From Lama guanicoe (taxonomy: Eukaryota): a DNA stretch of 64,000 nt. This document shows, piece by piece, positions 5,997-33,022 of this stretch. The notes beneath the pieces are model-generated. The model searched no databases. It was not told the origin of the DNA and saw only the letters and a program-made list of their open reading frames with translations. The stretch covers positions 1 to 64,000 of the forward strand of contig MU053085.1 in the NCBI GenBank assembly GCA_013239625.1, given 5' to 3'. The translations under genes were made by a program, and so were the position numbers. Numbering within the stretch: position 1 is the first letter of the stretch; each line of letters opens with the position of its first letter.

Positions 5997-6034
5997 CTGA
6001 AAAAAGGAAGGTGGGTTACTCTTTAAATGCAACT

Positions 6035-6224
6035 GGGGCTGAGCCCCCTCTGTGCCCACCTGCACCTTCTTCTAAAAAATCCCACTATGAATCCCCTCCA
6101 GCACCCAACCTAGACTTCCATTCCCCTGGAGTGATTTGTGTTTCGTTTTTCTTCACTTTCCTCTGTTTGTTTCATATCGGTTATGGCATCCTTTATTTTG
6201 CCTTTTTAAGATACTTTTAATAAA
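6035..6224 (+). pseudogene. 3' tip of terminal exon, copy 1
   Basis: Reads GAEPPLCPPAPSSKKSHYESPPAPNLDFHSPGVICVSFFFTFLCLFHIGYGILYFAFLRYF* in the same frame as the other copies. TAA 6218-6220 overlaps AATAAA 6219-6224. It is truncated 5' by the junction to the KIAA0895 intron. Confidence 0.65.
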
Positions 6225-6244
6225 ATATAGACTTTGTCCCTCTG

Positions 6245-6495
6245 AAATTGTGCAATTCAGGAGCACTAGGTGCCTTCACGATGCCATGCGACCATCACTA
6301 CCACGCAGGCTCACACCATTCCTTTCTTCAAAGCAAAACCCTGGATCCAGAGCACGCACTCCCCACCACCACCCCAGCCCCTGACAGCCCAGAGTCCTCT
6401 TCCCCTCTGGGTGTCTTTACCTCTCCTGGGTGTTCCCTGTCAATGAAGCCACAGGAAAGGTGGCTTTGCATGCCTGCCCTTGTGGCTTAAGTGGG
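6245..6495 (-). mobile_element. Highly degenerate L1M 3'-end relic (also 15478-15725 and 28962-29215)
   Basis: tgtgcaattcaggagcactaggtgccttcacgatgccatgcgaccatcactac...ccccagcccctgacagc aligns by eye with the L1MB-type tgtacaattcagtggcattaagtacattcacaatgttgtgcaaccatcacc...ccccagcccctggcaacc. Confidence 0.55.
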
Positions 6496-8099
6496 GGCTG
6501 GAGATGTTTTCTTTTGTTTTCACTTGAAATCGCATTTTGATCATTTGAAAGGGAAATCCAGGTGGGCTAAAGATGTCATGTGCAAAATGAAGCCCTTTCA
6601 GTAACTGTGCATAACCTCAGGAGAGGTACTGCTCTTCCCCCTGTCACACCAAAGCCACAAGACAGAAGGGAGATGCTTAGCTCTTCCTGGGGAAAAAACA
6701 AAACCTAGCAAATCAAGAAACCAGCAAAAGCCCAGAAATATAGCCAGAAAGACACTCCACGACCCGTAAGATGCGTTCCTCAGAACCCAACGTTGGAGAA
6801 AGGCTACACATCCCTGGGGTCCAAAAACCTCTCGAAACCCAGTGCTCTAAACAAACACAACACACACGGGCAGTTCCAACGAGAGGCACAGCAGATGGCC
6901 AGTGTGCCTTAGAGGTGCTCGACCTCTCGGGGGAGGACACAGGCAGATGGACACACTGTGGAGACAGCACTGGTCACCATGACGCTGGCAGGTCTTTAGC
7001 CTGGTGACAGCCAGCCCTGGTGACAACGTGAGGAGGCAGAGGCCCCAGCAGATCCCCCGGAGGGACGAGAGAACAGACACTCCTCTCCAGGGAAACAGTG
7101 TGCAGGACACATCAAAGGGCCACAGGCGCAGCAGCCCTTCCCCGGCAGTGCCGATCCTTAGAGCTGACCCCACCAAAGTGCTCACACAACTTGCAAAGAA
7201 GTTTTACTTCAGCAACATGAAAAGAATCAGTATGTCATCAAGACATTTTCAGAAGTGACCTGCCCTGGGCCCTAATGATACAAACACGTAAATACACAGA
7301 TATGCACATGCATCCAGGAAAAGAGACACAGAGACTGAAACACAGACAGGCAGAGGGAGAGAGAAACAAAGAGAGAGAGAGACAAGACAGGCCCTGAGAG
7401 ACACAGAGGGGTAGAAGGAACAGCGAAGCTGGGAACAAGCGGAAGTCACGCCCATTTTCAAAGCAAATATACTGAGGATGAAAAGCTTATTTCATTTATT
7501 CCAGAAAGAAAGCTACTCATAGGCTATCTTTATTTCAGAAACTAATTCTCTCCTGGTCATTTATTGCGATGATATATTGAATGGATAATAGACATGTTCC
7601 ATTCAACATATACACATTTATATGCAACAAAATATATATTATACATAAATATATATATTTACATGCTCAATTTTATATTTTATAAAAGCAACCTGAAAGA
7701 ATTTGAAGGGCAGAGTATACAGTTGTACAAAAAGCCACCTTTCAGAACACATTAGGCGATGTCTTTCCTATTTCTCTGTAACTCCTATGCTAGCCAAACG
7801 AGCCGCTAAGCAGCCTAAAGATCTGCAATGAAGGGTGCCTCTCTTTGCAACTTTTATGCTTTTCATGTCCACAGCATAATCGGTGATAGGAAGAAACTGA
7901 TTGTTTTGGCCTTGGACCTAAATGTCACTATGCATTTGGTTGGCTTAGACTTTCCAAAGGATAAAATCATCCCTTTGTCACGTCAAAGAAAGTACCAGAA
8001 AACAAAATTGTCAAAGGAGAGTTATAATTTCCTATAATGGAAAAAGAACCTACCTTGTGAGAATGGAAGATTTCCAAATTATAAAGGAGTCAGATCAGT

Positions 8100-9250
8100 T
8101 GGGCAGGAGCGGGAGGCAAGGGCACCAGCCCGCTCTGGCCAGGCAGGCCGCGGGCGACTCTGAGAGTCCAGGCGCGGGGCGGGCTTGGCGGCGGCCCGAG
8201 CTCCACGGAGGCTTCCGCGCCCGTCAGCAGAGCGCCCAAGCGGAGGGGGCACAGCTTTGGGGCCAGGGGAGGGATAGGGAGCAACAAGGGCTCCAGGGTG
8301 CTCAGCGTGGGGACCGACCAGGGCTCCGTGGTGCTCAGGGTGGGGAGCGACAAGGGCTCCGGGTTGCTGAGTGTGGGGACGAAAAGGGCTCCGCGGTGCT
8401 CATGGTGGGGAGCGACAAGGGCTCCGGGGTGCTCAGGGTGGGGAGCGACAAGGGCTCCTGGGTGCTCATGGTGGGGAGCGACAAGGGCTCCAGGGTGCTC
8501 CCCGCGCCCTCAGCCGTGGCCCCCGGCGCCCAGACTGCCGGCGACCGCCCTCCCCGCCCCGCAGAGGCCCGGGGGCCTCCCTCCGTACGCGGGGACCCGG
8601 GGCGGCAACCACCGCATCCTCCCTCCTTCCGGCGCCCCGCGCCCCGCCGCCGTCGCCGTACTCACCTCAAGGGCGCAAACGGCACAGCCGGCCGTCGGCC
8701 TCGTTCCCGCCGAAGCGTCTCGCTGCGGTACTCCCTGCGTGGGCGGGCTGTTCCCCGGCGGTCGCACGGGGTTCCGGGGTGGGGGAGCGGGGAGCAACGA
8801 ACAGAAGCGCAGCCTGCTGGCATTTTCCACAGGCCGGCGCCACCGCAGCCGCCTTGGGTCGCACAGCCCCCTGCCGGCCGCAGCTCTTGCTGTCCCGCGG
8901 AGCCGACAAGCCTTCGCGGACAGAGGATGGAGCCGCGGCGAGAGACGGAGTTCCGGCGGCGGTGTGCGCAGACTCTTTCCTGTGGGGATTGCGCGCATGC
9001 TCACCAGCGGGGCGGGACCCGCGGCCGTTGCGTGGGGGCCGGCCCCGCCCAGGGGCGCTGGTCCGGCTCAGCCAATCGCGAGCGCCGGGTATCCCGTCGC
9101 GGGCGCTTTGAATGCTTCGTGGGCCGCCTGAGGCAGGGGCAGGCTGGCCACGCCGCTGCCGTTTTGGGAGATCTTCTGAGATCGGGAGGGGAACCCGCCC
9201 CTCATGCTTTCGCTGGAGCCCCACCCTCGCCTGGCCGCGGGACTGGCGGA
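8100..9250. promoter_or_regulatory. CpG-island promoter, apparently bidirectional (copy 1)
   Basis: Dense CpG. NRF1-like gcgcgcatgctca at ~8991-9003, GC boxes at ~9010 and ~9041, CCAAT at 9072-9076, CDE cgcgg at 9098-9102, a 4-nt spacer, then CHR TTTGAA at 9107-9112. Minus-strand donor GAG|gtgagt at 8666/8665 and plus-strand donor CAG|gtaagt at 9290/9291. Confidence 0.8.
8277..8500. repeat. 33-bp G-rich minisatellite, ~7 copies
   Basis: Unit aagggctccggggtgctcagggtggggagcgac, with agggctcc recurring every 32-33 nt. The paralog at 17525-17585 has only ~2 copies. Confidence 0.9.
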
Positions 9251-12200
9251 AAAAAAAACAGCTGGGAAAGTAAAACAACACTGACTTCAGGTAAGTTACC
9301 TCTTTGGATGGAAGGAAGGGAATGGGATAAAGGAAAGGTGAAAAAGAAACTTCAAGCATTTGTATATTATTTGATTTCTTAAAAGAAAGATTTTTAAATG
9401 CTAACATTTTGCCAGAATGCTTAAATTTTTTAAAGAAATAAAATGTTTATAATTTTGTTACAAAAATACCCAAAATATATTCATGCATATGCACACAGAT
9501 ATGCATATTGTATATCTAAACGTAAAAAACATTATTTAATGAATAAAAGTATAGAAATTTTCTTTATCATTGAACTTTATTCTTTTCCTTAACTTACTAT
9601 TATTTCAGGTACTTCAGGGCTCCAGTGCTTGCCAGGAGATGCACATATCCAAGAAGGCCAGTCCCCAGCAGGGAAGCAGGATGGAGCCCCAGGTGCAGGT
9701 AGGTCAAGGGAGGATGGGGATGCTGGGGATGGTCGGAGGCAGGCAGGCAGGCTCGAGGTTGGGCAATGGGGAGGGAAGCATCGGGGTCTATGTGGGGCAC
9801 AGGTAGGCCAAGGCAGGATGGAGTGAGGGCTGCTGTGTGGGACCCAAGTAGGAAGGGAGGGAGGGGTGCTTCAGGAGCCAGGGTCGGGGTATCCCCCCCA
9901 ACCTCCTGCCACCTCCCAGAGCAGCAGCTGAATCCCTCCTGAGCTCCCTGTCGGACAGGCCAAGCTTTGGTATCTGCATCCTTGCTGCAAGTTGCTACAC
10001 AGCTCCCCTCATCTGGATCCCCCTGCCCGCTTTTCTTCCCCGCCAGCGACCTGTGCTCAAAGGCCCCGCTGGCTGGGACACCAGACCCAGTGCACCGTCC
10101 AAGGGACACCAGGGGGATTCCCTTGTTCTGTGAGCCAGTGTTCTCCAGGTGGACAGTTTTCCATGCCTCTCCTCCCGATGTGCAAGGCCTTCTCTCTAGG
10201 TGCTAAGGCCCTACACATTGACCTGTTTGGGTTTGTTTCTCGGCCTCCAATTTTACCCCGTCAGATGACTGTCCATAAGTTTATAAGAAGCCTTATAGGG
10301 CTAGGAGGGCAATGTACACTTCTTGTTCTTGTTCCATTTTATCTTGGCTCTTCTTAGAAATTCCTCATCCCCCACCCGTGATGTCCAAGTCCTTGGCTGC
10401 CCTGAAGCAAGAATCCTGGTGCTCGATACCTGACCAAGCTCCTCTTGGTACCTCTCCATCCACAGAGCCGCATACTCTGCCCGGTGGCCAAGAACCCTCA
10501 GCTGTCTTTGCTGTATCTGGAGTGGAGTCTGATCTCTCTCCCTTTTGGCACTAGCCTTGAATAAACTCTTTCCTACCATTTTTAACAAGTGTCCGGTGAA
10601 TACTTTCTACTCACCAGCAGCACCATGGAGCCTGCCGCGTGGCGGTCACAGCTCAAGCACACCCAGGCTTACACCCTCAGTTACTAGGTTTCCCGCACAC
10701 GCCCGCACGACACAGAACCTGAGAAAAGTCTGAGCGCTTCCAGAGCGTGGAACCCGCACACCCCACCTCTCCTCCAGTGCGTTCTCCTGGGGTCTCATCC
10801 TGCGCCTCCCTCTGCCCATGGCTTCCTAGTGGTCCAGGCTCCCCACTGGGAGTTCTCAGATCTCCATGGTGACCGTGCTCCTCTCCTGGCCATGCTTCAC
10901 ACCACCCCACAGGCTCATTGGGCAGGAAGCTTTGGAAGTTCCAGGGCAGGGATACAACTTAACCTGCTCTAAAGGGGGACAGAGGCACCCACTGACATTC
11001 TCTGAGGATGCAGGAGAATTAGCATCTGCCACAATTAGGGCCCACACTCCACTCTGGGCTGGGATGGATTTTTTTCCCTAAATCACAATAACAGCCATCA
11101 CTCACACAATCAGAAGGGGAGCAAACCCCACGCCAGGGCCCCGAAGGAGAACAGGTGACTGCATTGTAGAAAATGACAGGGTACGTGAAACACACAGGAG
11201 TGTCTTTAAAACATCCACACAGTCGTCTGTTTTTCAATTAAATTGGCCACGGAGTTTAGTCAAGCATTTTTTTTCAATTATTTTTGTTAAATAAGATTCC
11301 AGAGAGTATAGTGCAAACACTCAGTACAAAAGTTGCAATTAAGAAATGTACATTCACATTTAACATTTCAGTCCACTTTGTTTTTAAATAAAAATAGGAC
11401 AAATTATTCAATGACTTGTCTCAATTTAACAATCTTGGAAAAGACTGGAAGCTGCTCTAGGGTGTCCAGTGGACGTAAAAATAGACCCGTATTGATTATA
11501 CAAATCTATCATGAGAAGTTACCCAGTGATATTGAGTTGTGGTCCTTCTGATACAGACATCTCATTTCCACGTCTACAGAAGCGTTCTCAGTGAGCTCTA
11601 CTGGTGGGAGGATGTGTCACCCGGGCCACTCTGTGCCCAGGAAGGGACACGGAAGGGCTGAAGGGTTCCCACAACCCTTCTCAGTGCGTAAAGAGAACCC
11701 AAGAGTGGGCTTTGGGTTTACCTTAAATGAATCTGCTGCTGTGGCCATGATCACCTTACATCATCTCCGCGTGTGCAGGGTGGTGTGCAGTCAGTGTGCA
11801 CGAGAGACGGGGAGGGTGCCGGGGCCAAGTGGGAGCGCTGCAGGAGGGGTGCGGGAGCCACTGAGGCGTGGGGGCCAGGACCCGCCGGTGCGGGACGCAC
11901 TGCAGCCAGCCGGTGGACGACCCGTGGTGACCGGGGCCTGTCCCTTTGCGCATGCTGCGTGTCTTGGAATCCACACTAAGTGACACACAATTAGGAACTT
12001 TACAGCATGCAATGCTGAGTGCAAAGGGCTTGTGCAGCCAAGGTTTCGCCAGGGCCAAAGGCAGAACTGCGGGCCTGTCTGGGACTGATGCCTGGGTGGG
12101 GAGAGCCGGCGCTCCAGGCCGGCAGAAGAGGCCACGGTATATTCATCAGGAGTCCCAGGACGTGGGGGTGGTCCCCTGAGACGTGTGCTTTGTGCCCGGG

Positions 12201-13745
12201 CCTCAGGGGGCATGGGAGTTGCTGGTGGGAGGCAAGAAACAAGTTCTGGCTGCTGGTGGGCCCACTGCCCAATGCACATGCCCCGGGGAGGGAGAGCCCG
12301 CGGACGGGACGCTGCGTGGCTATGCCTGCAGGCGGCCCTGCGCAAGTTTACAAAGCCCGAGCAGTGGACAGATCTCTTGGGGGTTGGTCTGGGACTTCCT
12401 CGCTGTTTAAACGCCAATTCTTAGTCAACGACTGCCAGCTGTTTTGGAATCCAACCCATCCAAAGTCTGATCTGCCTGGAACCACAGAAGTCAGTGCCTG
12501 GGGGAGCCCAGGACACCCATGCTCCAGCAGCTGCCAACTGCTCACCATCCATAATGATCCCCATCTCGCCTCCCGAACATTTTCAGTGAAATCTGTTCTT
12601 GTATGTCCTCTCATCCCCAGGAATGAACAGTGACCACCTACATCGCTGCACAGCATGACGGGGACACGGGAGGGCTCTGATCAGGCATTGGGGGCTGGGT
12701 TGGCTCCACATAAGTGGAGAAGCGTGTGGAGTATGAGGGCATCTGGGGGCCCGCGTTCTCCCCCTGGCTGATGTCAAAGAGGCCTTACGGAAAGAGACAG
12801 GACAAGTGTCCTCACTGAGGGAAGAGTCTGTGTTTTCTAAGACGCGCTGGCAGGTGGCGCTGCCGGATACAGTTTTAGGATAGAACGTATGCTAAGATAA
12901 GGCAGGGAGTTTTCAGGCCAACGCTGTGTGACTTTGCTAGAGATCCTTCATTAAAGCACAGGCAGGGCTCAGCTCACAGCCCATGTGCTATCCCAAACTC
13001 ACAGCATGAGGCCTAAGTGAGGGTGACTCTGTGCCTGGGCACATCCGGGGATGGGCGGTGGGGCAAAGCCGATGCCTGGGGACCTCCATGGCTGTTCCAA
13101 ACCAGCCGACCAGGCACCACAAGCACCGTGCACGCATGAGCTAAGGGCTCCATCAACACCAGGACAACTTTGCAGGTGTCACTGTTAGCTGAGAGGTGCT
13201 GAACGTGAGTGGCTCTCTGGGTAACTGGGAGGGAGGTGGGCGGGGGGCTGCTGGCTCTTCCCTCCAGAATCCCTGCACCAACACACACCTGTGCCTCTCC
13301 CCTAAGGCCATCACATATACTCAAAACCAAAACACAACAAAATGAAACAAAGGACGAACTAGGGAGAATGGGACCAATTCAGTGCCTTGATGCTGCAGGA
13401 CTGCAGTAAAAGAAAAGTGAAAAGAGGCTTTCTTCCTCTCTAGGAGATATTGGAGACAGACACCCAGGCACCACTGGGAACTTGGTGGGAGTCAAGGCCA
13501 CCACTGTGTCCCAGAGCTGCTGCCCTCCCACAACCGGGGTCAGGATTTCTGGGGGAAATCAAGTCATGGCCGTCAGAGAATACCCTGAGTGTGGCAGCTT
13601 GGGGAAGGGGACCCTGGGAAGTGACCTCACTTCCCTGGCAACCGAACCCAACAGAATTAAGACCCGAGGTCACCGGGCACCCACTCTGTCGAGAAGCCCC
13701 TACTCAGCTCACCCGGTTGGTGAACTCAGCTCAACTCAGTCACCC

Positions 13746-13880
13746 ATGTTCTGCTGCATCCCAACACACCGAGGCCGCGGTGCCCAGAAGGACCGCAGCC
13801 AGGGGCTGGGCCAGTGGTGCCGGTGCTGGCTCAGCTCTCACCCCAGGCGCCTCTGGCCTTTTGGCCACAGGGACCCAAAG
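13746..13880 (+). CDS. Coding exon 1 of predicted spliced gene: MFCCIPTHRGRGAQKDRSQGLGQWCRCWLSSHPRRLWPFGHRDPK
   Basis: ATG at 13746, 45 codons, phase-0 donor AAG|gtaacc at 13880/13881. The MF(S)CC...W.R.W....RRLWPF pattern is one I recall from N-termini of multicopy mammalian 'RalGDS-like' predicted proteins. Confidence 0.7.
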
Positions 13881-14296
13881 GTAACCCAGGGAGGCCCGGG
13901 GCAGGCCCGACCAGCCCAGGCCACCACTCAGGCCCCACCTGGGTATAGCCCCACATCCCCTTCCCTTTGCTGGTGGAGGTGGGCTGTCATGTTGGGCTGG
14001 GTTGGGGGGCCTGCCTCAAGCACGAGCAGGTCAGAGGCCTGGGGGGCCTGTCACGTCCGCACCCCGGGTCCCAGCTGGCGGGCTGGGCTGTGGCCAGCCG
14101 GGCAGGGCCCTGCCGCCCGAGTCGAAGCCCGTGCCCTCTGGCTGTATCTCTTCCCTCCCGGGTGGCTGTCTCAGCTGACCAAGGTCCCGTCTGATCGGGC
14201 AGCAGAGGGTCGAGCGGGCAGAAGCGGGAGTGGCCCTGGCCGGGCAGGGCTCTGAGACCTCCAGGCCGGGCCCGCTGCCACTCACTGTCATTGCAG

Positions 14297-14392
14297 AGCC
14301 GGAGACTGCAGGAGACGCTGGATCGGGACACCCACGCCGCCTCCCCGAGCGAGGGGCCGCTGCACGCTTCTCAGGGCCAGCACCAGCTCCGG
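14297..14392 (+). CDS. Coding exon 2: SRRLQETLDRDTHAASPSEGPLHASQGQHQLR
   Basis: Acceptor ctcactgtcattgcag|, donor CGG|gtgagt. 96 nt, phase 0-0, open in frame with exon 1. Confidence 0.65.
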
Positions 14393-14514
14393 GTGAGTCT
14401 GCACACGGAAGGGTCCTCACCACCACGACGGCCTCCTCCCCAGAAACCGCCCAGGCGGCACGCCAGGGCCCTGCCCGCGGCTGACAGGCAGCTCAGCAGA
14501 CCCAGCTCTGACCA

Positions 14515-14544
14515 TAACCCTAACCCTAACCCTAACCCTAACCC
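14515..14544. repeat. Short interstitial telomeric repeat (TAACCC)5
   Basis: Five perfect TAACCC units (TTAGGG on the minus strand) inside predicted intron 2. Confidence 0.95.
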
Positions 14545-14577
14545 ACATGTCCCAGGGAGCAGCTCCCTGGGAGTCAG

Positions 14578-14614
14578 GTGGAGGACCAGGAGACCACCGA
14601 GGCACAGCCCCAAG
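14578..14614 (+). CDS. Coding exon 3: VEDQETTEAQPQ(V)
   Basis: Acceptor gagtcag| (an alternative in-frame acceptor at 14563 adds LPGSQ), donor AAG|gtgaga. 37 nt, phase 0-1. The acceptor choice is uncertain: the first AG after the branch region (exon start 14556) would shift the frame. Confidence 0.5.
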
Positions 14615-14924
14615 GTGAGAAGGGCGGGGCTGGTGAACGTGCGCAGGCGAGGGAGGGCCGAGGGCTGGGCCACACAGGGAGGCGTCCCCGGAGGCTGCTG
14701 CTGGCACCAGAGCAAACATTGGTCTCAGACCACCTGCCTACAAGAGTTCAGTCACAAAACACATCCTGTGGGCACTTGCTGGGTGGGAGCTGTCCGCAAA
14801 GCTCTGGGAAGATGTCCGCCCTTGAAGAGGCCCACGGAAAGGGAGGCACGTGGCTCAAGTTTTCCTCTCTCAAAGCACGAGCGAGCGCATCCACGAGACT
14901 CAAAGCTCTCTCCACTTCCAACAG

Positions 14925-15448
14925 TCACAGATCCAGAGCAGGCGCGGGCAGGGGAAGATGCCACAGACCAAAACCAGGACCATCAGGATCCAGCAGGAGA
15001 CCCCGAGCTCCCTCCTGCTGCTCCTGCAGCTTCTGTAGCTCCAGCAGCTAACGCTGCTCCTGAAGATCCTGCCGCTCCTGCCCCTCCAGCAGCTCCTACT
15101 GCTCCTGACGATTTCGCAGCTCCTGCTCCTCCAGAAGTTCCCGCAGTTCCTGCTGATCCTGAAGGTCCCACAGCTCCTGCTGCTTCCAAAGGTCCTGAAG
15201 ATGCTGCACCTGCAGCTGGACCGCTGGGCCACTGAGAACCATTTCAGGCATCATCAGCCCCTGGGGCTGAGCCCCCTCTGCGCCCACCCGCACCTTCTTC
15301 TTCAAAATCCCACCATGAATCCCCTCCCGCACCCAACCTTGACTTCCATTCCCCTGAAGTGATTTGCGTTAGGTTTTTCTTCACTTTCCTCTGTTTGTTT
15401 CATATTGGCTATGGCATCCTTTATTTTGCCCTTTTAAGTTTCTTTTAA
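14925..15448 (+). pseudogene. Terminal exon: Pro/Ala-rich repeat region, premature TGA at 15233-15235, then an in-frame hydrophobic tail to TAA 15446-15448
   Basis: Acceptor ctctctccacttccaacag| is phase 1 and matches exon 3. It reads TDPEQARAGEDATDQNQDHQDPAGDPELPPAAPAA...AAGPLGH*EPFQASSAPGAEPPLRPPAPSSSKSHHESPPAPNLDFHSPEVICVRFFFTFLCLFHIGYGILYFALLSFF*. The homologous codon in copy 3 is GGA. Confidence 0.65.
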
Positions 15449-18400
15449 AAAAATATTGACTTTGTCCCTCTGGAATTGTGCAATTCAGGAGCACTAGGTG
15501 CCTTCACGATGATGTACGACCATCACTACCTGCAGGCTCACACCATTCCTTTCTTCAAAGTAAAAACTTGGATCCACATCACGCTCTGCCCGCAACACCT
15601 CATCCCCCAGCCCCTGACAGCCCCGAGTCCTCTTCCCCTCTGGGTGTCTTTACCTCTCCTGGGTGTTCCCTGTCAATGAAGCCACAGGAAAGCTGGCTTT
15701 GCGTGCCTGCCCACGTGCCTTAAGCGGGGACTGGTGATGTTTTCTTTTGTTTTCACTTGAAATCGCATTTTGATTATTGGAAAGGGAAATCCAGGTGGGC
15801 TAAAGATGTCATGTGCAAAATGAAGCCCTTTCGGTAACTCTCTGCATAACCTCGGGGGAGGCGCTGCTCTTCCCCCTGGGACGCCACAGCCACAAGACAG
15901 AAGGGAGATGCTTAGCTCTTCCTGGGGCAAAAACAAAAGCACACAAACCAAGAAACCAGCAAAAGCCCAGAAATATACCCGGAAAGAGACTCCACGACCC
16001 GCGAGGTCCCAAGCTTGGAGAAAGGCTACACATCCCCGGGGTCCAAAAACCTCTCGAGACCCAGCGCTCTAAACAAACAAAACAAACACGCAGATCCAAG
16101 GAGAGGCACAGCAGGTGGCCAGTGTGCGTTAGACGTGCTCGACCTCTCGGGAGGACACAGGCAGTCCGACACACTGTGGGGACAGCACTGGTCACCATGA
16201 CGATGGCAGGGCTTTAGCCTGGTGACAGCCAGCCCTGGTGACAACGTGAGGAGGCAGAGGCCCCAGCAGATACCCCAGAGGGATGAGAGAACAGACACAC
16301 CTCTCCAGGGAAACAGTGTGCAGGAAGCATCACAGGGCCACAGGCGCAGCCCTTTCCCGTCAGTGCCGATCCATAGAGCTGACCCCACCAAAGTGCTCTC
16401 ACAACTTGCAAAGAAGTTTTAACTTCAGCAACATGAAAAGAATCAGTATGTCATCAAGGCATTTTCAGAAGTGACCTGCCCTGGGCCCGAACGATACAAA
16501 CACGTAAATACACAGATACGCACGTAAATGTACACGCACATGCATCCAGGAAAAGGGACAGAGAGACTGAAACACAGACAGGTAGATACAGATAGAAACA
16601 GAGAGAGCGAGAGAAAAGACAGGCGCTGAGAGACACAGATGAGGAGAAGGAACACTGGAGCTGGGAACGAGCGGAAGTCACGCCCATTTTTAAAGGAAAG
16701 ATACTGAGGATGAAAAGCTTATTTCATTTATTCCAGAAAGAAAGCTACTCATAGGCTATCTTTATTTCAGAAATGTAATTCTCTCCTGGTCTTTTATTAC
16801 GATGATACATTGAGTGGATAATAGACATATTCCATTCAACATATACACATTTATATGCAACAAAATAAATATTATACATAAATGTATATATTTACATCCT
16901 CAATTTTATATGTTATAAAAACAACTTGAAAGAATTTGAAGGGCAGAGTATACAGTTGTACTAAAAGCCACCTTTCAGAACACATTAGGCGATGTCTTTC
17001 CTATTTCTCTGTAACTCCTATGCTAGCCAAAGGAGCCACTAAGCAGCCTAAAGATCTGCAATGAAGTGTGCCTCTCTTTGCAACTTTTATGCTTTTCATG
17101 TCCACAGCATAATCGGTGATAGGAAGAAACTGATTGTTTTGGCCTTGGACCTAAATGTCACTATGCATTTGGTTGGCTTAGACTTTCCAAAGGATAAAAT
17201 CATCCCTTTGTCACGTCAAAGAAAGTACCAAAAACCAAAATTGTCAAAGGAGAGTTATAATTTCCTATAATGGAAAAAGAACCTACCTTGTGAGAATGGA
17301 AGATTTCCAAATTATAAAGGAGTCAGATCAGTTGGGCAGGAGCGGGAGGCAAGGGCACCAGCCCGCTCTGGCCAGGCAGGCCGCGGGCGACTCTGAGAGT
17401 CCAGGCGCGGGGCGGGCTTGGCGCGGGGCGGGCTTGGCGGCGGCCCGAGCTCCACGGAGGCTTCCGCGCCCGTCAGCAGAGCGCCCAAGCGGAGGGGGCA
17501 CAGCTTTGGGCCCAGGGGAGGGATAGGGAGCAACATAGGCTCCAGGGTGCTCAGGGTGGGGAGCGACAAGGGTTCCGGGGTGCTCCCCGCGCCCCCAGCC
17601 GTGGCCCCCGGCGCGCAGACTGCCGGCGACCGCCCTCCCCGCCCTGCAGAGGCCCGCGCGGCCTCCCTCCGTCCGCGGGGACCCTGGGCGGCAACCGCAG
17701 CATCCCCCCTCCTTCCGGCGCCCCGCGCCCCGCCGACGCCGCCTTACTCACCTGAGGTGCGCAACCGGCACAGCCGGCCGTTGGCCTCCTTCCCGCCGAA
17801 GCGTCTCGCTGCGGTTCTCCCTTCGTGGGCGGGCTGTTCCCCGGCGGTGGCAGGGGGTTCAGGGGTGGGGGGGCGGGGAGCAATAAACCGAAAGGCTGCC
17901 TGTTTGCATTTTCCACAGGCCGGCGCCACCGCAGCCGCCTTGGATCCTCACAGCCCCCTGCCGGCCGCAGCTCTTGGCTGTCTCGCTGAGCCGACAAGCC
18001 TTCGCGGACAGGGGACGGAGCCGCGGCGCGAGACGGAGGTCGGGCGGCGGTGTGCGCAGACTCTTTCCTGTGGGGACTGCGCGCATGCTCACCAGCGGGG
18101 CGGGACCTGCGGCCGCCGTGTGGGGGCGGGACACGCGGCCGCTGCGTGTGGCCGGCCCCGCCCAGGGGCGCTGGTCCGGCTCAGCCAATCGGGAGCGCCG
18201 GGTACCTCGGCGCGGGCGCTTTGAATGCTTCCTGGGCCGCGTGAGGCAGCGGCAGGGTGGCCACGCCACTGCCGTTTTGGGAGATCTTTTGAGATCGGGA
18301 GGGGATCCCGCCCCTCATGCTTTCGCTGGACCCCCACACTCGCCCTGCCGCGGGACTGGCGAAAAAAAAAACAGCTGGGAAAGTAAAATAACACTGACTT

Positions 18401-21400
18401 CAGGTAACAGTTACCTCTTTGGATGGAAGGAAGGGAATGGGATAAAGGAAAGGTGAAAAAGAAACTTCAAGCATTTGCATATTATTTGATTTCTTAAAAG
18501 AAAGATTTTTAAATGCTAACATTTTGCCAGAATGCTTAAATTTTTTAAAGAAATAAAATGTTAATATGTAATTTTGTTACAAAAATACCCAAAATATATT
18601 CATGCATATGCACACAGATATGCATATTTTATATCTAAATGTAAAAAACTTTAGTCAATGAATAAAATTATAGAAATTTTCTTTATCATTGAACTTTATT
18701 CTTTTCCTTAACTTACGGTTATTTCAGGTACTTCAGGGCTCCAGAGCCTGCCAGGAGATGCACATATCCAAGAAGGCCAGTCCCCAGCAGGGAAGCAGGA
18801 TGGAACCCCAGGTGCAGGTAGGTCAAGGGAGGATGGGGATGCTGGGGATGGTCAAAGGCAGGCAGCGAGGCTCGAGGTCAGGCAATGGGGAGGGAAGCAT
18901 CGGGGTCTATGTGGGGCACAGGTAGGCCAAGGCAGGATTGAATGAGGGGCGCTGTGCGGGACCGAAGTAGGAAGGGAGGGGAGGGGTGCTTCAGGAGCCA
19001 GGGTCGGGGTATCTCCCCCTACCTCCTGCCACCTCCCAGAGCAGCAGCTGAATCCCTCCTGAGCTCCCTGTCAGACAGGCCCAGCTTTGGTATCTGCATC
19101 CTTGCCCCAAGTTGCTACACTGCTCCTCTCATCTGGATCCCACTGCCCGCTTTTCTTCCCCGCCAGTGACCTGTGCTCAAACGCCCCGCTGGCTGGGACA
19201 CCAGACCCAGTGCACCGTCCAAGGGACACCAGGGGGATTCCCTTGTTCTGTGAGCCAGTGTTCTCCAGGTGGACAGGTTTCTCTGCCTCTCCTCCCAATG
19301 TGTAAGGCCTTCTCTCTAGGTGCTAAAGCCCTACACATTGACCTGTTTGGGTTTGTTTCTCGGCCTCCAATTTTACCCCGTCAGATGACTGTCCATAAGT
19401 TTATAAGAAGCCTTANNNNNNNNNNNNNNNNNNNNNNNNNNNNNNNNNNNNNNNNNNNNNNNNNNNNNNNNNNNNNNNNNNNNNNNNNNNNNNNNNNNNN
19501 NNNNNNNNNNNNGACCTGAAGCTCCTGGTGCTCGATACCTGACCAAGCTCCTCTTGGTACCTCTCCATCCACAGAGCCGCATACTCTGCCCGGTGGCCAA
19601 GAACCCTCAGATGTCTTTGCTGTATCTGGAGTGGAGTCCGATCTCTCTCCCTTTTGGCACTAGCCTTGAATAAATTCTTTCCTACCATTTTTAACAAGTG
19701 TCCGGTGAATACTTTCTCCTCACCAGCAGCACCGTGGAGCCTGCCGCATGGCGGTCACAGCTCAAGCACACCCAGGCTTACACCCTCAGTTACTAGGTTC
19801 CCCCCACACGCCCGCATGACACAGAACCTGAAAAAAGTCTGAGCGCTTCCAGAGCATGGAACCCGCGCACCCCACCTTTCCTCCTGTGCGATCTCCTGGG
19901 GTCTCATCCTGCGCCTCCCTCTGTCCACGGCTTCCCAGTGGTCCAGGCTCCCCACTGGCAGTTCTCAGGTCTCTATGGTGACCGCGCTCCTTTCCTGACC
20001 ATGCTTCACACCACCCCACAGGGTCATCAGGCAGGAAGCTTTGGAAGGTCCAGGGCAGGGATACAACTTAACCTGTTCTCAAGGGGGACAGAGGCACCCA
20101 CTGACTTTCTCTGAGGATGCAGGAGATTTAGCATCTGCCACAATGAGAGCCCACACTCCACTCTGGGCTGGGATGGGTTTTTTTCCCTAAATCACAATGA
20201 CAGCCATCACTCACTCTACTAAATGCTGTTCCCAGCAGCCCTGGATTGTGCTGTTTCACCGAGGCCTCTGCCTGGAGGTGGCTATCCCCATCTGCCCAAA
20301 GGGCCCAGGACTCCCTAGGTCTGCATGGGGCACAGACCAACAGTGAGGCTGGACCCTAACTTCCATATTTCATTTCAGTCAGGCAAGTTTTTTTCCTATT
20401 GTTTTATAAAAGATTAAAATAGCGGGAAGACACTGGTTAGAGAGACTAGTCATGAGGAATTACAAATAATTCAAATCTTCTTCCCTGGAATCTCACATTT
20501 AGGTGCAAAAATTGAGCACCAAAGTATGCCCATCCACTGCTCCCACCTGTCACGAGATGGGGCTGCTCATCAGAAGGGGAGCAGACCCCACGCCAGGGCC
20601 CCGAAGGAGGACAGGGTGACTGCATTGTAGAAAATGACAGGGTACATGAAACACACAGGAGTGTCTTTAAAACATGCACACACTGATCTGTTTTTCAATT
20701 AAATTGGCCACGGAGTTTAGTCAAGCAATTTTTTTCCTTTATTTTTGTTAAATACAACTCCAGAAAGTATAGTGCAAACACTCAGTAGAAAAGTTGCAAT
20801 TAAGAAATGTACATTCACATTTAACATTTCAGTCCATTCACTTTGTTTCTAAATAAAAATAGGACAAATTATTCAATGACTTGTCTCAATTTAACAATCT
20901 TGGAAAAGACTGGAAGGTGCTCTACAGTGTCCAGTGGACGTAAAAATAGACCCGTATTGATTATACAAATCTATCATGAAAAGTTACCCAGTGATATTGA
21001 GTTGTTGTCCTGATTCAGACATCTCGTTTCCATGTCTTCAGAAGCGTTCTCAGTGAGCTCTACTGGTGGGAGGATGTGTCACCCGGGCCACTCTGTGCCC
21101 AGGAAGGGACACGGAAGGGCTGAAGGGTTCCCAAAACCCTTCTCAGTGCGTAAAGAGAACCCAAGAGTGGGCTTTGGGTTTACCTTAAATGAGAGTGGAA
21201 TCTGCTGCTAAGAGGTGGCCATGATCACCTTACATCATCTCCGCGTGTGCAGGGTGGTGTGCGGTCAGTGTGCACGAGAGATGGGGAGGGTGCCGAGGCC
21301 AAGTGGGGGTGCTGCAGGAGGGGTGCGGGAGCCACTGAGGCGTGGGGGCCAGGACCCGCCATGGCGGGACGCTCTGCGGCCAGCCGGCGGACAACCCGTG

Positions 21401-23230
21401 GTGACCGGGGCCTATCCCTTTGCTCATGCTGCGTGTCTTGGAAACCAAAGGAAGTGACACACAATTAGGAACATCACGGCATGTGATGCTGGATGCAAAG
21501 GGCTTGTGCAGCCACGGTTTCGCCAGGGCCAAAGGCAGAACTACAGGCCTCTATGGGACTGATGCCTGGGCGGGGAGTGCCGGTGCTCCAGGCCAGCAGG
21601 AGAGATCGTGGTCTATTCATCAGGAGTCCCAGGACGTGGGGGTGATCCCCTGAGACGTGTGCTTTGTGCCCGGGCCTCAGGGGGCGTGGGAGTTGCTGGT
21701 GGGAGGCAAGAAACATGTTGTGACTGCTGGTGGGCCCACTGCCCAATGCACATGCCCCGGGGAGTGAGAACCCGCGGACTGGACGCTACGTGGCTGTGCC
21801 TGCAGGCGGCCCTGCACATGTTTTAAAAGCCCAAGAGGTGGCGAGATCTCCTGGGGGTTGGTCTGGGACTTCCTCGCTGTTTAAACGCCAATTCTTAGTC
21901 AACGACTGCCAGCTGTTTTGGAATCCAACCCATCCAAAGTCTGATCTGCCTGGAACCACAGAAGTCAGTGCCTGGGGGAGCCCAGGACACCCGTGCTCCA
22001 GCGGCTGCCAACTGCTCACCAACCATCACGATCCCCATCTCGCCTCCCGCACATTTTCAATGAAATCTGTTCTTGTATGTCTTCTCATCCCCAGGAAGGA
22101 GCAGTGACCACCTACATCGCTGCACAGCATGACGGGGACACGGGAGGGCTCTGATCAGGCATTGGGGGCTGGGTTGGCTCCACATAAGTGGAGAAGCGTG
22201 TGGAGTATGAGGGCATCTGGGGGCCCGCGTTCTCCCCCTGGCTGATGTCAAAGAGGCCTTACGGAAAGAGACAGGACAAGTGTCCTCACTGAGGGAAGAG
22301 TCTGTGTTTTCTAAGACGTGCTGGCAGGTGGCGCTGCCGGATACAGTTTTAGGATAGAACGTACGCTAAAATAAGGCAGAGAGTTTTCAGGCCAATGCTG
22401 TATGACTTTGCTAGAGATCCATTGTTAAAGCACAGGCAGGGCTCAGCTGACAGTCCATGTGCTGTTCCAATCTCACAGCATGAGGCCTAAATGAGGGTGA
22501 CTCTGTGCCTGGGCACATCCGGGGATGGGCGGTGAGGCAAACCCGATGCCTGGGGACCTGCCTGGCTGTTCCGTACCAGCGGCCAGGCACCGCCACCTCC
22601 GTGCGCACTTTAGCTAAGGGCTCCAACAACACCAGCACAACTTTGCTGGTGTCACATGGGAGGGAGGAGGGGCTACCGACTCTTCCCTCCAGAATCCCTG
22701 CACCAACACCCACCTGTATCTCTCCCCTCAGGCCTCCACGTATACACAAATCCCAAACACAACAAAATGAAACAAAGCAAAGGNNNNNNNNNNNNNNNNN
22801 NNNNNNNNNNNNNNNNNNNNNNNNNNNNNNNNNNNNNNNNNNNNNNNNNNNNNNNNNNNNNNNNNNNNNNNNNNNNNNNNNNNNNNNNNNNNNNNNNNNN
22901 NNNNNNNNNNNNNNNNNNNNNNNNNNNNNNNNNNNNNNNNNNNNNNNNNNNNNNNNNNNNNNNNNNNNNNNNNNNNNNNNNNNNNNNNNNNNNNNNNNNN
23001 NNNNNNNNNNNNNNNNNNNNNNNNNNNNNNNNNNNNNNNNNNNAGGAAAAAATAAAAGAGACTTTCTTCCTCTCTAGCAGATGTTGGAGACAGATGCCCA
23101 GGCACAACTGGGACCTTGGTGGAAGTCAAGGCCACCTCTGTGTCCCAGAGCTGCTGCCCCCTCTCCTCCCAGGGTCAGGATTTATAGGGGAAATCAAGTC
23201 ATGTCCGTCAGGGAATGCCCTGGGTGTGGC
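15261..23230. repeat. Segmental-duplication unit, copy 2 (diverged, gapped; colinearity with copy 1 ends at ~23230)
   Basis: Colinear with 6033-13595, with many substitutions and small indels. It has an extra ~350 bp at 20215-20566. It diverges after gaatgccctgggtgtggc, before the MFCC exon would be reached. Confidence 0.9.
17335..18360. promoter_or_regulatory. CpG-island promoter (copy 2)
   Basis: Paralog of 8100-9250. CCAAT (~18185) and gcgcgg-gcgc-TTTGAA (~18210-18225) are retained. The plus-strand donor is altered to gtaaca. Confidence 0.8.
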
Positions 23231-26200
23231 CGTCATTTGTTCATGTTCCAAATTAATTTGTTCTTTATATGCATCCATCTTAATCCCAGGAACAAATAAG
23301 TGGTTTTAATTTTGCCTAAGCCATGCCATTCACACACACACCACACACACACTTGCATTAAGCATGACCTCTGGCAGAATAATTTCTTTTTATCTTAGAA
23401 AACAGATTTGATATGGAACAGATTATATTTTCAGGGTAATTAAGGAATACAAATGTCTGAGTCGTTAACACAATGTCAAGTCGTGTAAGGAGGTCTAGCC
23501 CCAATGTAGGACCCTCGAAATTCGGTTTGTTATGAAACAGATGATGGAGGAGACAAATTCCGCTTCACCATCACAGGACCTGCCTCCACGACGTGTGCGC
23601 GCACACGAGAGACAAAGGGAAACTCCCCGAATCCTTTCCAAAGCATCCTGTGGCCTCCCAGACGTGAAAGTTCACCAGGCGCTCCCCGTCTGGGGTGCCG
23701 GCCCCTGACCACGAGAGGGAAAATCTAGGTCAGATTCCAGTTGCTAGGGCTGGTCCCATGGTCCATGCTGGTCTCACTGGCCGCCCTGCTGGCCACGCCA
23801 ACCCCAGTCCCAGCCACTCGAGTGCCCCCTGCACCCCACGCTCCTACATGCATCCCTATGTTCAGCTGCCCCGCCCACACTGCATCCCTCCCAGGCACAG
23901 GGCCTGCCTGTGGCTCTTGCCCATCAGGTCACACAGAATCAAGGGTGCCCTCCCACCACTGAGGGACTGGGCGGTGGTGGACAACTGTCTGTCAGTGCTC
24001 CCTGGGGCCAGCTACCCCTGCCTTGGACGGGATTCACTCGAGCTCCTGAGTCCATCCTGGGAAAACTCACAACACTATTCCCCCCACCGCCCACTTTGCC
24101 AACCACTGGGCACCTGGCCTGGATATTTNNNNNNNNNNNNNNNNNNNNNNNNNNNNNNNNNNNNNNNNNNNNNNNNNNNNNNNNNNNNNNNNNNNNNNNN
24201 NNNNNNNNNNNNNNNNNNNNNNNNNNNNNNNNNNNNNNNNNNNNNNNNNNNNNNNNNNNNNNNNNNNNNNNNNNNNNNNNNNNNNNNNNNNNNNNNNNNN
24301 NNNNNNNNNNNNNNNNNNNNNNNNNNNNNNNNNNNNNNNNNNNNNNNNNNNNNNNNNNNNNNNNNNNNNNNNNNNNNNNNNNNNNNNNNNNNNNNNNNNN
24401 NNNNNNNNNNNNNNNNNNNNNNNNNNNNNNNNNNNNNNNNNNNNNNNNNNNNNNNNNNNNNNNNNNNNNNNNNNNNNNNNNNNNNNNNNNNNNNNNNNNN
24501 NNNNNNNNNNNNNNNNNNNNNNNNNNNNNNNNNNNNNNNNNNNNNNNNNNNNNNNNNNNNNNNNNNNNNNNNNNNNNNNNNNNNNNNNNNNNNNNNNNNN
24601 NNNNNNNATAAGTCAGTGGGAGTTAGTCACACATAACTAATGGGGCTGCATACTGAGAATGACAAGTGTACCAGCAGATCTGTGACCCCTCCCAAGAGAG
24701 CTACTCAATACAGGGCACAGTGTGACCTGACCTTNNNNNNNNNNNNNNNNNNNNNNNNNNNNNNNNNNNNNNNNNNNNNNNNNNNNNNNNNNNNNNNNNN
24801 NNNNNNNNNNNNNNNNNNNNNNNNNNNNNNNNNNNNNNNNNNNNNNNNNNNNNNNNNNNNNNNNNNNNNNNNNNNNNNNNNNNNNNNNNNNNNNNNNNNN
24901 NNNNNNNNNNNNNNNNNNNNNNNNNNNNNNNNNNNNNNNNNNNNNNNNNNNNNNNNNNNNNNNNNNNNNNNNNNNNNNNNNNNNNNNNNNNNNNNNNNNN
25001 NNNNNNNNNNNNNNNNNNNNNNNNNNNNNNNNNNNNNNNNNNNNNNNNNNNNNNNNNNNNNNNNNNNNNNNNNNNNNNNNNNNNNNNNNNNNNNNNNNNN
25101 NNNNNNNNNNNNNNNNNNNNNNNNNNNNNNNNNNNNNNNNNNNNNNNNNNNNNNNNNNNNNNNNNNNNNNNNNNNNNNNNNNNNNNNNNNNNNNNNNNNN
25201 NNNNNNNNNNNNNNNNNNNNNNNNNNNAGGAAAAAATAAAAGAGACTTTCTTCCTCTCTAGCAGATGTTGGAGACAGATGCCCAGGCACAACTGGGACCT
25301 TGGTGGAAGTCAAGGCCACCTCTGTGTCCCAGAGCTGCTGCCCCCTCTCCTCCCAGGGTCAGGATTTATAGGGGAAATCAAGTCATGTCCGTCAGGGAAT
25401 GCCCTGGGTGTGGCCGTCATTTGTTCATGTTCCAAATTAATTTGTTCTTTATATGCATCCATCTTAATCCCAGGAACAAATAAGTGGTTTTAATTTTGCC
25501 TAAGCCATGCCATTCACACACACACCACACACACACTTGCATTAAGCATGACCTCTGGCAGAATAATTTCTTTTTATCTTAGAAAACAGATTTGATATGG
25601 AACAGATTATATTTTCAGGGTAATTAAGGAATACAAATGTTTGAGTCGTTAACACAATGTCAAGTCGTGTAAGGAGGTCTAGCCCCAATGTAGGACCCTC
25701 GAAATTCGGTTTGTTATGAAACAGATGATGGAGGAGACAAATTCCGCTTCACCATCACAGGACCTGCCTCCACGACGTGTGCGCGCACACGAGAGACAAA
25801 GGGAAACTCCCCGAATCCTTTCCAAAGCATCCTGTGGCCTCCCAGACGTGAAAGTTCACCAGGCGCTCCCCGTCTGGGGTGCCGGCCCCTGACCACGAGA
25901 GGGAAAATCTAGGTCAGATTCCAGTTGCTAGGGCTGGTCCCATGGTCCATGCTGGTCTCACTGGCCGCCCTGCTGGCCACGCCAACCCCAGTCCCAGCCA
26001 CTCGAGTGCCCCCTGCACCCCACGCTCCTACATGCATCCCTATGTTCAGCTGCCCCGCCCACACTGCATCCCTCCCAGGCACAGGGCCTGCCTGTGGCTC
26101 TTGCCCATCAGGTCACACAGAATCAAGGGTGCCCTCCCACCACTGAGGGACTGGGCGGTGGTGGACAACTGTCTGTCAGCGCTCCCTGGGGCCAGCTACC

Positions 26201-27030
26201 CCTGCCTTGGACGGGACGCCCTCGAGCTCCTGAGTCCATCCCGGGAAAAGTCACAACACTATTCCCCCCACCGCCCACTTTGCCAACCACTGGGCACCTG
26301 GCCTGGACTTTTCTTGCCACATATGTCGCTGGACGATGCGTACTGTGGAATCGGAGCCCTTCAAATCTCTTTGCCGTACCCCAAAGTCAACTTGGAGGCC
26401 TGACCCATCATGACCGGCCTCCTGACACCCAGGTGGGGGTTCCCGTCCTGCCTGCTGACCTCTGGGCCTGGCGACACAGCTCCCAGCAGACCTTGAACCT
26501 CCTGATTTAGACCCACCCACAGCCTCACAGCCTAAGGACTTCTGAAGCCAGATGAAACCCAACGCGCCGTATGGAGAAACGTCACGTCTTTCGTCATCCA
26601 CTGCAGTACCTGGAGTATTACATGAAAATGAGAGGCTGCTAGTGCAAATTCGACTTTCAAAGCAAACCGCAGCTGGGGAGGCGGGATGTTAAATTTGACT
26701 TTCAAAGCAAACTGCAGCTGGGGAGGCAGGATGGTCAGGCCCAGGGACACTGCCGAGGCCGCCAACTGTCAGCTGGCCACAGCTCACCCCTCATTTATTT
26801 CACCAAACCAAAATATTTTGAAACTCATGGTCTCTACGGAGTTTGGATTTTTGGTTTTTGCTTTGTTGCTCTTTTGTTCATTGAAGCCATTACAAAACCA
26901 AGGATAAGTCAGTTTCTGGGGAGTTAGTTACACATAACTAATGGGGCTGCATACTGAGAATGACAAGTGTACCAGCAGATCTGTGACCCCTCCCAAGAGA
27001 GCTACTCAATACAGGGCACAGTGTGACCTT
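23044..27030. repeat. Near-identical gap-flanked duplication (23044-24734 vs 25228-27030)
   Basis: Both copies start with aggaaaaaataaaagagac immediately after an N-gap, offset 2184. They are almost identical except near the 3' ends. Confidence 0.9.
26646..26735. repeat. 45-bp tandem duplication
   Basis: aaatt(c/t)gactttcaaagcaaac(c/t)gcagctggggaggc(g/a)ggatg at 26646 and 26691. Confidence 0.85.
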
Positions 27031-28558: not shown

Positions 28559-28933
28559 GCTAATGCTCCTCCTGAAGATCCTGCAGCTCCTGCCGCTCCC
28601 GCAGCTCCTGCTGCTCCTGACGGTCCCGCAGCTCCTGCTGGTCCTGAAGGTCCCGCAGCTCCCACTGCTTCCGAATGTCCTGAAGATGCTGCAACTGCAG
28701 CTGGACCACTGGGTTACGGAGAAACATTTCCGGCATCACCAGCCCGTGGGGCTGAGACCCCTCTGCGCCCACCCACACCTTCTTCTTCAAAATCCCACCA
28801 TGAATCCCCTCCCGCACCCAACCTTGACTTCCATTCCCCTGAAGTGATTTGTGTTTGGTTTTTCTTCACTTGCCTCTGTTTTTTTCATATTGGTTATGGC
28901 ATCCTTTCTTTTGCCTTTTTAACTTTCTTTTAA
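28559..28933 (+). pseudogene. 3' part of terminal exon, copy 3 (open through the hydrophobic tail; 5' exons absent)
   Basis: Reads ANAPPEDPAAPAAPAAPAAPDGPAAPAGPEGPAAPTASECPEDAATAAGPLGYGETFPASPARGAETPLRPPTPSSSKSHHESPPAPNLDFHSPEVICVWFFFTCLCFFHIGYGILSFAFLTFF*. TAA 28931-28933 overlaps AATAAA 28932-28937. An in-frame TGA at 28556-28558 marks the junction. Confidence 0.7.
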
Positions 28934-29825
28934 TAAAATACAGACTTTGTCCCTCTGAAATTATGCAATTCAGGAGCACTAGGTGCCTTCACGATGCCGT
29001 GCGACAATCACTACCATGCAGGCTCACACCATTCCTTTCTTCAAAGTAAAACCCTGGATCCAGAGCATGCACTACCCCCCTCCCCCACCCCACCACCGAG
29101 CCCCTGACAGCCCCGAGTCCTCTTCCCCTCTGGGTGTCTTTACCTCTCCTGGCTGTTCCCTGTCAATGAAGCCACAGGAAAGGTGGCTTTGCGTGCCTGC
29201 CCACATGGCTCTAGCGGGGGCTGGTGATGTTTTGTTTTGTTTTCACTTGAAATACCATTTTGAATATTTGAAAGGGAAATCCAGGTGGGCTAAAGATGTC
29301 ATGTACACAATTAAGCCCTTTCGGTAACTCTGTGCATAACCTCGGGTGAGGCACTGCACTTCGCCCTGAGACACCACAGTCACAAGACAGAAGGGAGATG
29401 CTTAGCACTTCCTGGGGCAAAAACAAAACCAAGCAAATCAAGAAACCAGCAAAAGCCCAGAAATATAGCCGGAAAGACATTCCACAACCCGCAAGAAGTG
29501 TTCCTCAGAACCCAAGTTTGGAGAAAGGCTATACATCCACGGGGTCTAAAAACCTCTCGAAACCCAGTGCTCTAAACAAACACAACACACACAGGCAGTT
29601 CCAACTAGAGGCACAGCAGGTGGCCAGTGTGTGTTAGACGTGCTCGACCTCTCGGGGGAGGACACAGGCGGACGGACACACTGTGGAGACAGCACTAGAA
29701 ACCATGACACTGGCAGGTCTTTAGCCTAGTGAGAGCCAGCCCTGGTGACAACGTGACGAGGCAGAGGCCCCAGCCAATCCATTGGAGGGACGAGAGAACA
29801 GACATTCCTCTCCAAGGAAACAGTG
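28559..29825. repeat. Partial third copy of the duplication unit
   Basis: Matches 15047-16320, and 6033-7100 from ~28748 onward. It ends at ggaaacagtg, where the macrosatellite begins. Confidence 0.9.

Positions 29826-31245: not shown

Positions 31246-31276
<31 letters not shown>

Positions 31277-32991: not shown

Positions 32992-33022
<31 letters not shown>

Follow-up and report, generated by a model that had tools for sequence, protein, structure and literature searches.

The 64,000-nucleotide (nt) window analysed here, positions 1 to 64,000 of the forward strand of Lama guanicoe contig MU053085.1 (assembly GCA_013239625.1), carries at 13746-15448 a four-exon gene structure with a Cys-pair basic head, a Pro/Ala-rich spacer and, beyond a TGA, a hydrophobic end. 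We conclude that this copy has probably become a pseudogene, within an amplified camelid family that derives from RALGDS-like genes and is carried in long tandem units. An initial annotation, made by a model from the letters alone, had proposed a hidden, uncharacterised multicopy gene for a membrane tether. What we report is mostly a correction of that proposal, in that the 'hidden gene' would be a damaged member of a family modelled by automatic annotation, and its neighbours fragments. Of possible specialist interest are the origin of the family from RALGDS-like genes, in the course of which both domains of the catalytic core were lost, and the tie to the long-monomer tandem arrays of camelid genomes, which PMC13751797 has only recently described. 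Were some copies translated, they would exemplify a remnant that was multiplied along with a satellite and yet yields a membrane-bound disordered protein.

In the scheme that we favour, the family would have kept from its parent the first exon with the Cys-pair basic head, the second exon, a short ..PGSDLEH.. remnant from behind the RasGEF_N region and a Pro/Ala-rich exon ending in T-rich DNA, and would have lost the RasGEF_N (REM) and RasGEF (CDC25) domains. The copies ride in long tandem units, of ~9.3 kb in the window, and would multiply as DNA by unequal exchange or segmental duplication. The window copy would then have been disabled by a telomere-repeat insertion, which breaks the middle frame unless an optional intron is used, and by the TGA, which would cut off its last 71 codons; that an open frame persists behind the TGA would be owed to the young age of the copies and to their C/T-rich composition. 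Both the pseudogene status and the mode of spread are what we infer from the observations below.

Exon anatomy and lesions of the window copy

Codon and phase analysis of the proposed four-exon model, on the plus strand of 13746-15448, upheld its predicted anatomy (Table 1). The exons have GT-AG borders with phases 0, 0 and 1, and the spliced frame is, as had been claimed, 192 codons long and ends at the TGA at 15233-15235. Past this TGA the frame continues for 70 codons to a TAA at 15446-15448, the last 29 of them strongly hydrophobic. With the tail segment behind the stop, the product of the window copy would have no C-terminal hydrophobic helix without readthrough. The architecture of head, spacer and hydrophobic end stands for the family; the window copy itself is truncated. 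The position of the TGA is occupied by Gly in the third copy of this region in the window and in alpaca models.

Table 1. Coordinates of the features discussed (window positions)
Feature	Position	Strand	Remarks
Exon 1	13746..13880	+	Encodes the 45-amino-acid (aa) head MFCC..RGRG..W..RRLWPFGHRDPK; donor AAG|GTAACC
Exon 2	14297..14392	+	32 aa, SRRLQETLD..GQHQLR; acceptor ..cattgcag|, donor CGG|GTGAGT
'Intron 2' of the initial annotation	14393..14577	+	185 nt; retention puts the window copy out of frame
41-nt insertion	14514..14554	+	Mostly (CCCTAA)n; borders uncertain by 1-2 bases
Exon 3	14578..14614	+	Encodes VEDQETTEAQPQ; acceptor ..ctgggagtcag| (weak pyrimidine tract), donor AAG|GTGAGA
Exon 4 up to TGA 15233-15235	14925..15235	+	Acidic stretch, then Pro/Ala repeats
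Frame behind the TGA	15236..15448	+	41 Pro/Ser-rich codons, 29-codon hydrophobic tail (15359-15445), TAA
Two tandem units	6033..22777	.	6033-13352 against 15261-22777, ~91% match
Copy 1, 3' fragment	6033..6224	+	Equivalent to 15261-15448; starts already behind the TGA position
Copy 3, 3' fragment	28559..28937	+	Equivalent to 15079-15448; GGA for TGA; in-frame stop just upstream
Core stretch	13503..16675	.	Very many variant contigs in runs X14 and X15; from depth bins

The Pro/Ala-coding part of exon 4 is built of periodic repeats with periods of 9, 27 and 45 nt at 15012-15195, as delimited by Tandem Repeats Finder (TRF). Open reading frames (ORFs) of at least 110 aa cross the exon in three of the six frames, several frames being open there because of the 9-nt periodicity. 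Coding by the minus strand of these repeats was considered and rejected, tblastn having given only low-complexity matches there.

The middle of the gene is where the window copy departs from its relatives. The homologous 144 nt are read as 48 codons (VSLHTEGSPPPRR..PGSDLE..SQ) in the models of alpaca and Camelus ferus. Since the alpaca stretch is 144 nt long, its spliced and its retained reading are both in frame, whereas the window copy, with its 41-nt insertion, is in frame in the spliced reading only. The insertion is absent from the alpaca models, which read RPGSDLEQLPASQ there, and from one contig of a public RNA library, in which 11 letters stand between 14503 and 14556 against 52 in the window, exactly 41 fewer. 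TRF describes the region as 5.7 copies of period 6 at 14511-14544. As an observation in its own right, the insertion around 14511-14554 is an interstitial telomere-type repeat, with CCCTAA about five times, and such a repeat may be the mark of a repaired break.

Contigs of four public sequencing runs were aligned on 12000-17000; one run (X1) is the RNA library, and the kind of the others (X14, X15 and X19) is unrecorded. At 14325 (G), 14593 (A) and 15036 (T) all or nearly all aligned contigs differ from the window, and the letters of the other contigs restore the alpaca residues Q, P and A. One loose contig end at 15234 reads ..GGCAGTG, giving Gly instead of the stop. No splice joint is recorded in the contigs of any of the four runs, and splicing found no confirmation; as contigs show presence and not absence, the missing joints are no argument against splicing.

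We regard it as quite unlikely that the window copy is itself expressed and spliced, giving a 192-aa head-plus-spacer protein without the tail, either soluble or lipid-anchored. Its six splice sites are canonical and their phases fit, introns 1 and 3 match exon junctions in alpaca, and removal of intron 2 restores the frame despite the 41-nt insertion. Against this, the acceptor of intron 2 has a poor pyrimidine tract and the alpaca models skip that intron; no AATAAA or ATTAAA is present at 15230-16800, the site that overlaps the TAA being mutated in the window copy; there is no CpG island (observed/expected CpG 0.14-0.67); and the window's letters at 14325, 14593 and 15036 each replace the residue that alpaca has.

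Relatives in alpaca and wild camel

All seven candidates from a search with exon 1 are NCBI models of Vicugna pacos (P0001-P0007 in our numbering), and exon 1 is 78-87% identical to their heads over 45 residues, at 100% coverage (E 4e-15 to 5e-18). These models are 267-381 aa long, bear the names 'uncharacterized protein' or 'skin secretory protein xP2-like', and sit on records of five different lengths (18-97 Mb). A full-length alpaca query also finds a model in Camelus ferus (P0008), named 'predicted GPI-anchored protein 58'. The gene is thus not hidden, as the initial annotation had it, because models of the family already exist in NCBI's alpaca and wild camel annotations. The names xP2-like and GPI-anchored protein 58 appear to reflect Pro/Ala composition. 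Glycosylphosphatidylinositol (GPI) anchoring, suggested by one of them, was rejected, as the head is basic and by inspection offers no hydrophobic stretch for a signal peptide.

The alpaca models resemble the window copy in exon order, in the acidic and Pro/Ala-rich part and in the hydrophobic end. In tblastn with the stored alpaca proteins, the window has in colinear order exon 2, the middle part, exon 3 and the Pro/Ala exon with its hydrophobic end; exon 4 with the tail is 70-71% identical to P0002 and P0006, with '*' at the TGA. The window copy differs from the alpaca models in its 41-nt insertion and in the TGA 71 codons from the end, which interrupt its frame. Two of the three proposed introns were corroborated by the alpaca junctions, HRDPK|SR.. 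and ..AQPQ|VTDPEQ falling in the same places as introns 1 and 3, whereas intron 2 is read as coding in all alpaca models. A restricted search with the tail region passed 4 of 37 candidates, all from alpaca, and a metagenome scan with the family alignment gave 601 pattern matches and no relatives.

Origin from RALGDS-like genes

The camelid family is not an orphan, its descent from RALGDS-like genes being indicated by homology of the head and exon 2. A profile built from the camelid proteins and run over 1.84 billion representative proteins brought up 44 at E <=0.001, most of them sharing the head only. The head has the consensus MF.CC.P..RG.G...R.W...LWPF.RR, common to 33 sequences, and is found in camelids, bats, horse, rabbit and anteater; it is conserved across placental orders. 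Named carriers include a rabbit 'RALGDS isoform X2', a bat 'fibrous sheath CABYR-binding protein-like' (FSCB-like) and LOC models of an anteater. Among 32 related ORFs, nine read on into 'VT..' where the donor of exon 1 sits in the window, so this donor site looks widely conserved.

The alignment with RALGDS-like proteins extends beyond the head. BLASTP of alpaca P0006 against a horse 'RALGDS-like' protein (P0042) gave E 4e-11 over the head and exon 2, and a second, weak match (E 0.037), ..PGSDLEH..EDQEP.., is colinear with it and lies after the horse RasGEF_N domain. Profile-profile comparison with the RALGDS-like proteins gave a probability of 98.5% (E 3.7e-15) over the first 69 columns; exon 2 of the window, colinear with alpaca residues 46-77, falls inside this match. 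By Pfam the horse proteins have a RasGEF_N domain, and a rabbit protein with the same head (P0019) has a RasGEF domain. Neither RasGEF_N (REM, PF00618) nor RasGEF (CDC25, PF00617) was found in three alpaca proteins and three window translations, and Pfam reported no domain of any kind for the window exons or for the short forms from camelids, bats and anteater. A sequence search of the PDB with the RALGDS-like head alignment gave no matches. Judged by this homology, the camelid family is a RALGDS-like gene without both exchange-factor core domains; given that it has no RasGEF_N or RasGEF domain, exchange-factor activity is not to be expected in the camelid form.

The horse and rabbit RALGDS-like genes, which also form multicopy families, are homologous to the camelid form in their first two exons, whereas their proteins are without its hydrophobic tail. 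The bat FSCB-like models (Eptesicus P0017, Saccopteryx P0046) and the anteater model LOC143648094 (P0026) have the same head, a long disordered, acidic and Pro/Ala-rich middle and a hydrophobic C-terminus as in camelids, but their alignment with the camelid proteins is significant only for the head and the first part, and the bat tail has no significant match to the camelid tail. The architecture of head, linker and tail is modelled in camelids, bats and an anteater, and a bolder reading would make of this a real, uncharacterised placental class of short, non-catalytic RALGDS-like offshoots, with head, disordered acidic Pro/Ala linker and C-terminal membrane helix, which in camelids would have reached very high copy number within satellite-like arrays of long monomers, with a minority of copies coding, and which the head would place at the membrane sites of the exchange factors. 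We think this reading unlikely.

In the open-access literature searched we found no paper on the camelid family or its RALGDS-like descent. The part available of a paper on the rat telomere-to-telomere genome (PMC13477028) names Ralgdsl11 as well as a 'RALGDS-like' gene supported by Iso-Seq.

The head exon also occurs in proteins of Molossus bats (P0024, P0066 and P0067 of Molossus molossus; P0013 of Molossus nigricans). In one Molossus bat it is joined to a PACS-type C2 domain (Pfam PF25332, E 1.4e-30), and another has five tandem repeats of a part of the head. It seems that this exon has been reused as a first exon.

Tandem units and fragmentary copies

Self-comparison of the window revealed tandem units of ~9.2-9.4 kb. 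The third unit is rearranged, 3.1 kb of unrelated DNA (25415-28563) taking the place of 13596-15078. Of the three gene copies that had been counted, only one has exons 1-3, which are single in the window both by self-comparison and by tblastn with the alpaca proteins; the other two are headless 3' fragments, although the claim of an amplified family holds. Two further claims were confirmed: the TGA of the window copy is GGA at 28718-28720 in copy 3, and all three copies are open to a homologous TAA (15446-15448, 28931-28933 and 6218-6220). An AATAAA overlaps this TAA in copy 1 (6219-6224) and in copy 3 (28932-28937).

The sequence of the open stretch is C/T-rich, and shuffled versions of it are open in 14% of cases over 70 codons and in 43% over the 29-codon tail; an open tail is weak evidence for coding. 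Being ~90% alike, the copies are moreover not independent evidence of an open frame, and zero indels are found across copies also in the 75 nt past the TAA. The differences between copies at the three codon positions number 9, 8 and 8; 7, 5 and 3; 5, 4 and 7; and 5, 7 and 6, and the corresponding counts of nonsynonymous to synonymous codons between window copies are 17:6, 13:2, 8:6 and 12:4. The window copies diverge evenly over the codon positions, as under neutral change, and neither count gives a sign of purifying selection between them.

Retrotransposition as the mechanism of spread was not supported, as the introns are kept and copies 1 and 3 are cut off at borders of the array or of the rearrangement.

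Other repeats accompany the units. In each 9.3-kb unit there is a very GC-rich part (8000-9400 and 17300-18300) in which either strand has long open frames and short repeats (..GSDKGSGVL..) lie internally. Positions 23044-24123 and 25228-26307 are 99.4% identical and lie beside runs of N (22784-23043, 24129-24607 and 24735-25227); this pair may be an assembly duplication around the gaps. At 29825-34900 there are about four further tandem units of ~1.75 kb each, 61-91% alike, which begin at the end of copy 3's core homology and the first part of which resembles 16144-16350.

Abundance of the core stretch and its possible link to an alpaca satellite

On the 5 kb aligned there were 1995 contigs from X14 and 1116 from X15. 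In X14 the summed contig depth, which is not a copy number and whose borders are known to 167-nt bins, rises from 46 (13336-13502) to 28,038 (13503-13669) and falls from 38,417 (16509-16675) to 3,639 (16676-16842), the introns and 1.2 kb of downstream DNA being as deep as the exons. The 3.2-kb core delimited by these steps would thus be present in very many variant copies, X14 and X15 most plausibly being genomic DNA.

The available part of a 2026 report on alpaca satellites (PMC13751797) describes long-monomer satellites and pseudogene-rich repeat blocks. For one of them, VpaSat05, it states that the probe labelled all centromeres, with a possible artefact noted by the authors, and that PCR detected the satellite in South American camelids only. 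In reverse complement, the first 400 letters of the 8,550-bp VpaSat05 consensus (Table S3 of PMC13751797) resemble 15206-15535 by eye, at roughly 70-85%; in this start of the consensus we recognise, again by eye, the exon 4 end, the pre-tail, the tail, TTTAATAAAAT and the downstream stretch. The tail frame of the visible 400 of 8,550 letters has stops, by the same inspection. One VpaSat05 13-mer is found at 15517-15529 and 6289-6301, both on the minus strand, where none is expected by chance.

VpaSat05-8550 is like the local unit in its similar size (~9.3 kb in the window), its GC richness and, as judged by eye, the 3' module. DUX4 in D4Z4 and USP17 in RS447 are known cases of an ORF present in every unit of a tandem repeat of kilobase size; in contrast to these, most of the camelid copies seen are fragments or damaged.

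The unit might instead matter as DNA or as non-coding RNA, in satellite-like heterochromatin or through repeat transcripts, its frames being relics. The very many variants, and a depth of introns and downstream DNA no less than that of the exons, would fit such a role, as would the module apparently common to VpaSat05-8550, the probe of which is reported at all centromeres, with the possible artefact noted above (PMC13751797). An X1 contig runs colinearly through exon 2, 'intron 2' (minus the 41 nt), exon 3 and 58 nt of intron 3, and contigs of an RNA library that are colinear with the genome over exon-intron borders could be read as repeat transcripts. An RNA library can hold DNA, however, so that the X1 contigs are no proof of transcription, and neither of the two published VpaSat05 primers matches the window at <=3 mismatches. 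We consider this role highly improbable as the main significance of the unit.

Possible coding members and points against the favoured reading

A more serious alternative, still somewhat unlikely in our judgement, is that intact members elsewhere in camelids encode a disordered protein of ~310 aa with a palmitoylated Cys pair and a C-terminal tail anchor, of which the window copy is a damaged relative. The initial annotation's expectation of an uninterrupted head-to-tail frame somewhere in the family was borne out in alpaca by P0002 and P0006, and by P0007, part of whose tail is disturbed; all three end where the protein reconstructed in that annotation does. The tail is hydrophobic, as had been stated, the best 19-residue Kyte-Doolittle mean being 1.85-2.9 in related proteins (1.85 in alpaca P0006), above the usual membrane threshold. 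In an AlphaFold2 model of P0006, built on an alignment of six sequences, the mean predicted local distance difference test score (pLDDT) is 50.9; the sole helix, 283-312, is exactly the tail, with a block pLDDT of 81-93, the rest being mostly <50. The conservation of the head across placental orders, the hydrophobic C-termini of the head-bearing bat and anteater models (P0017, P0046 and P0026) and the similarity of a further ORF (P0048) to the camelid tail point the same way. The pair Cys3 and Cys4 and the neighbouring basic residues, 12 Lys and Arg among the 45 aa of the alpaca head, form a pattern of palmitoylation type at the level of sequence only; palmitoylation, tail anchoring and the bridging of two membranes would be putative properties of such a protein.

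On the other side, the models are automatic predictions, one being a frame-shifted chimaera (P0001) and two others (P0004 and P0005) departing from the tail frame, and the homology of bat and camelid tails is not significant. T-rich DNA yields hydrophobic residues anyway and open frames are likely from composition, while the visible start of the satellite consensus, read by eye, has stops in the tail frame. The ORFs found are also a selected sample of very many copies.

Our preference remains for a pseudogenised window copy in a family spread as DNA. Several points weigh against it and should be set out together. The neutral pattern of differences involves the two fragments without a head, and with a working parent gene these would still drift. 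P0002, P0006 and P0007 share one head-to-tail frame, which may reflect constraint somewhere in the family. P0048 gives a 45% match to pre-tail and tail along 83 aa (E 1e-12), all gaps being whole codons; as the ORFs were selected from very many copies, they cannot settle constraint. The donor of intron 2, CGG|GTGAGT, is strong, and use of this intron would rescue the frame of the window copy. As to spread and abundance, the satellite comparison covers 400 of 8,550 consensus letters, by eye, and the published primers have no match in the window; the depth borders are as coarse as their bins, the summed depth does not count copies, and the kind of X14 and X15 is off record.

Further repeats in the window

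Near the start of the window, an ORF at 473-814 on the minus strand has a translation resembling what we take to be a fragment of LINE-1 ORF1, in keeping with the mammalian origin of the window. At the other end, a 258-nt direct repeat with 100% identity occupies 61615-61872 and 63743-64000, its copies 2128 nt apart and the second reaching the window end.

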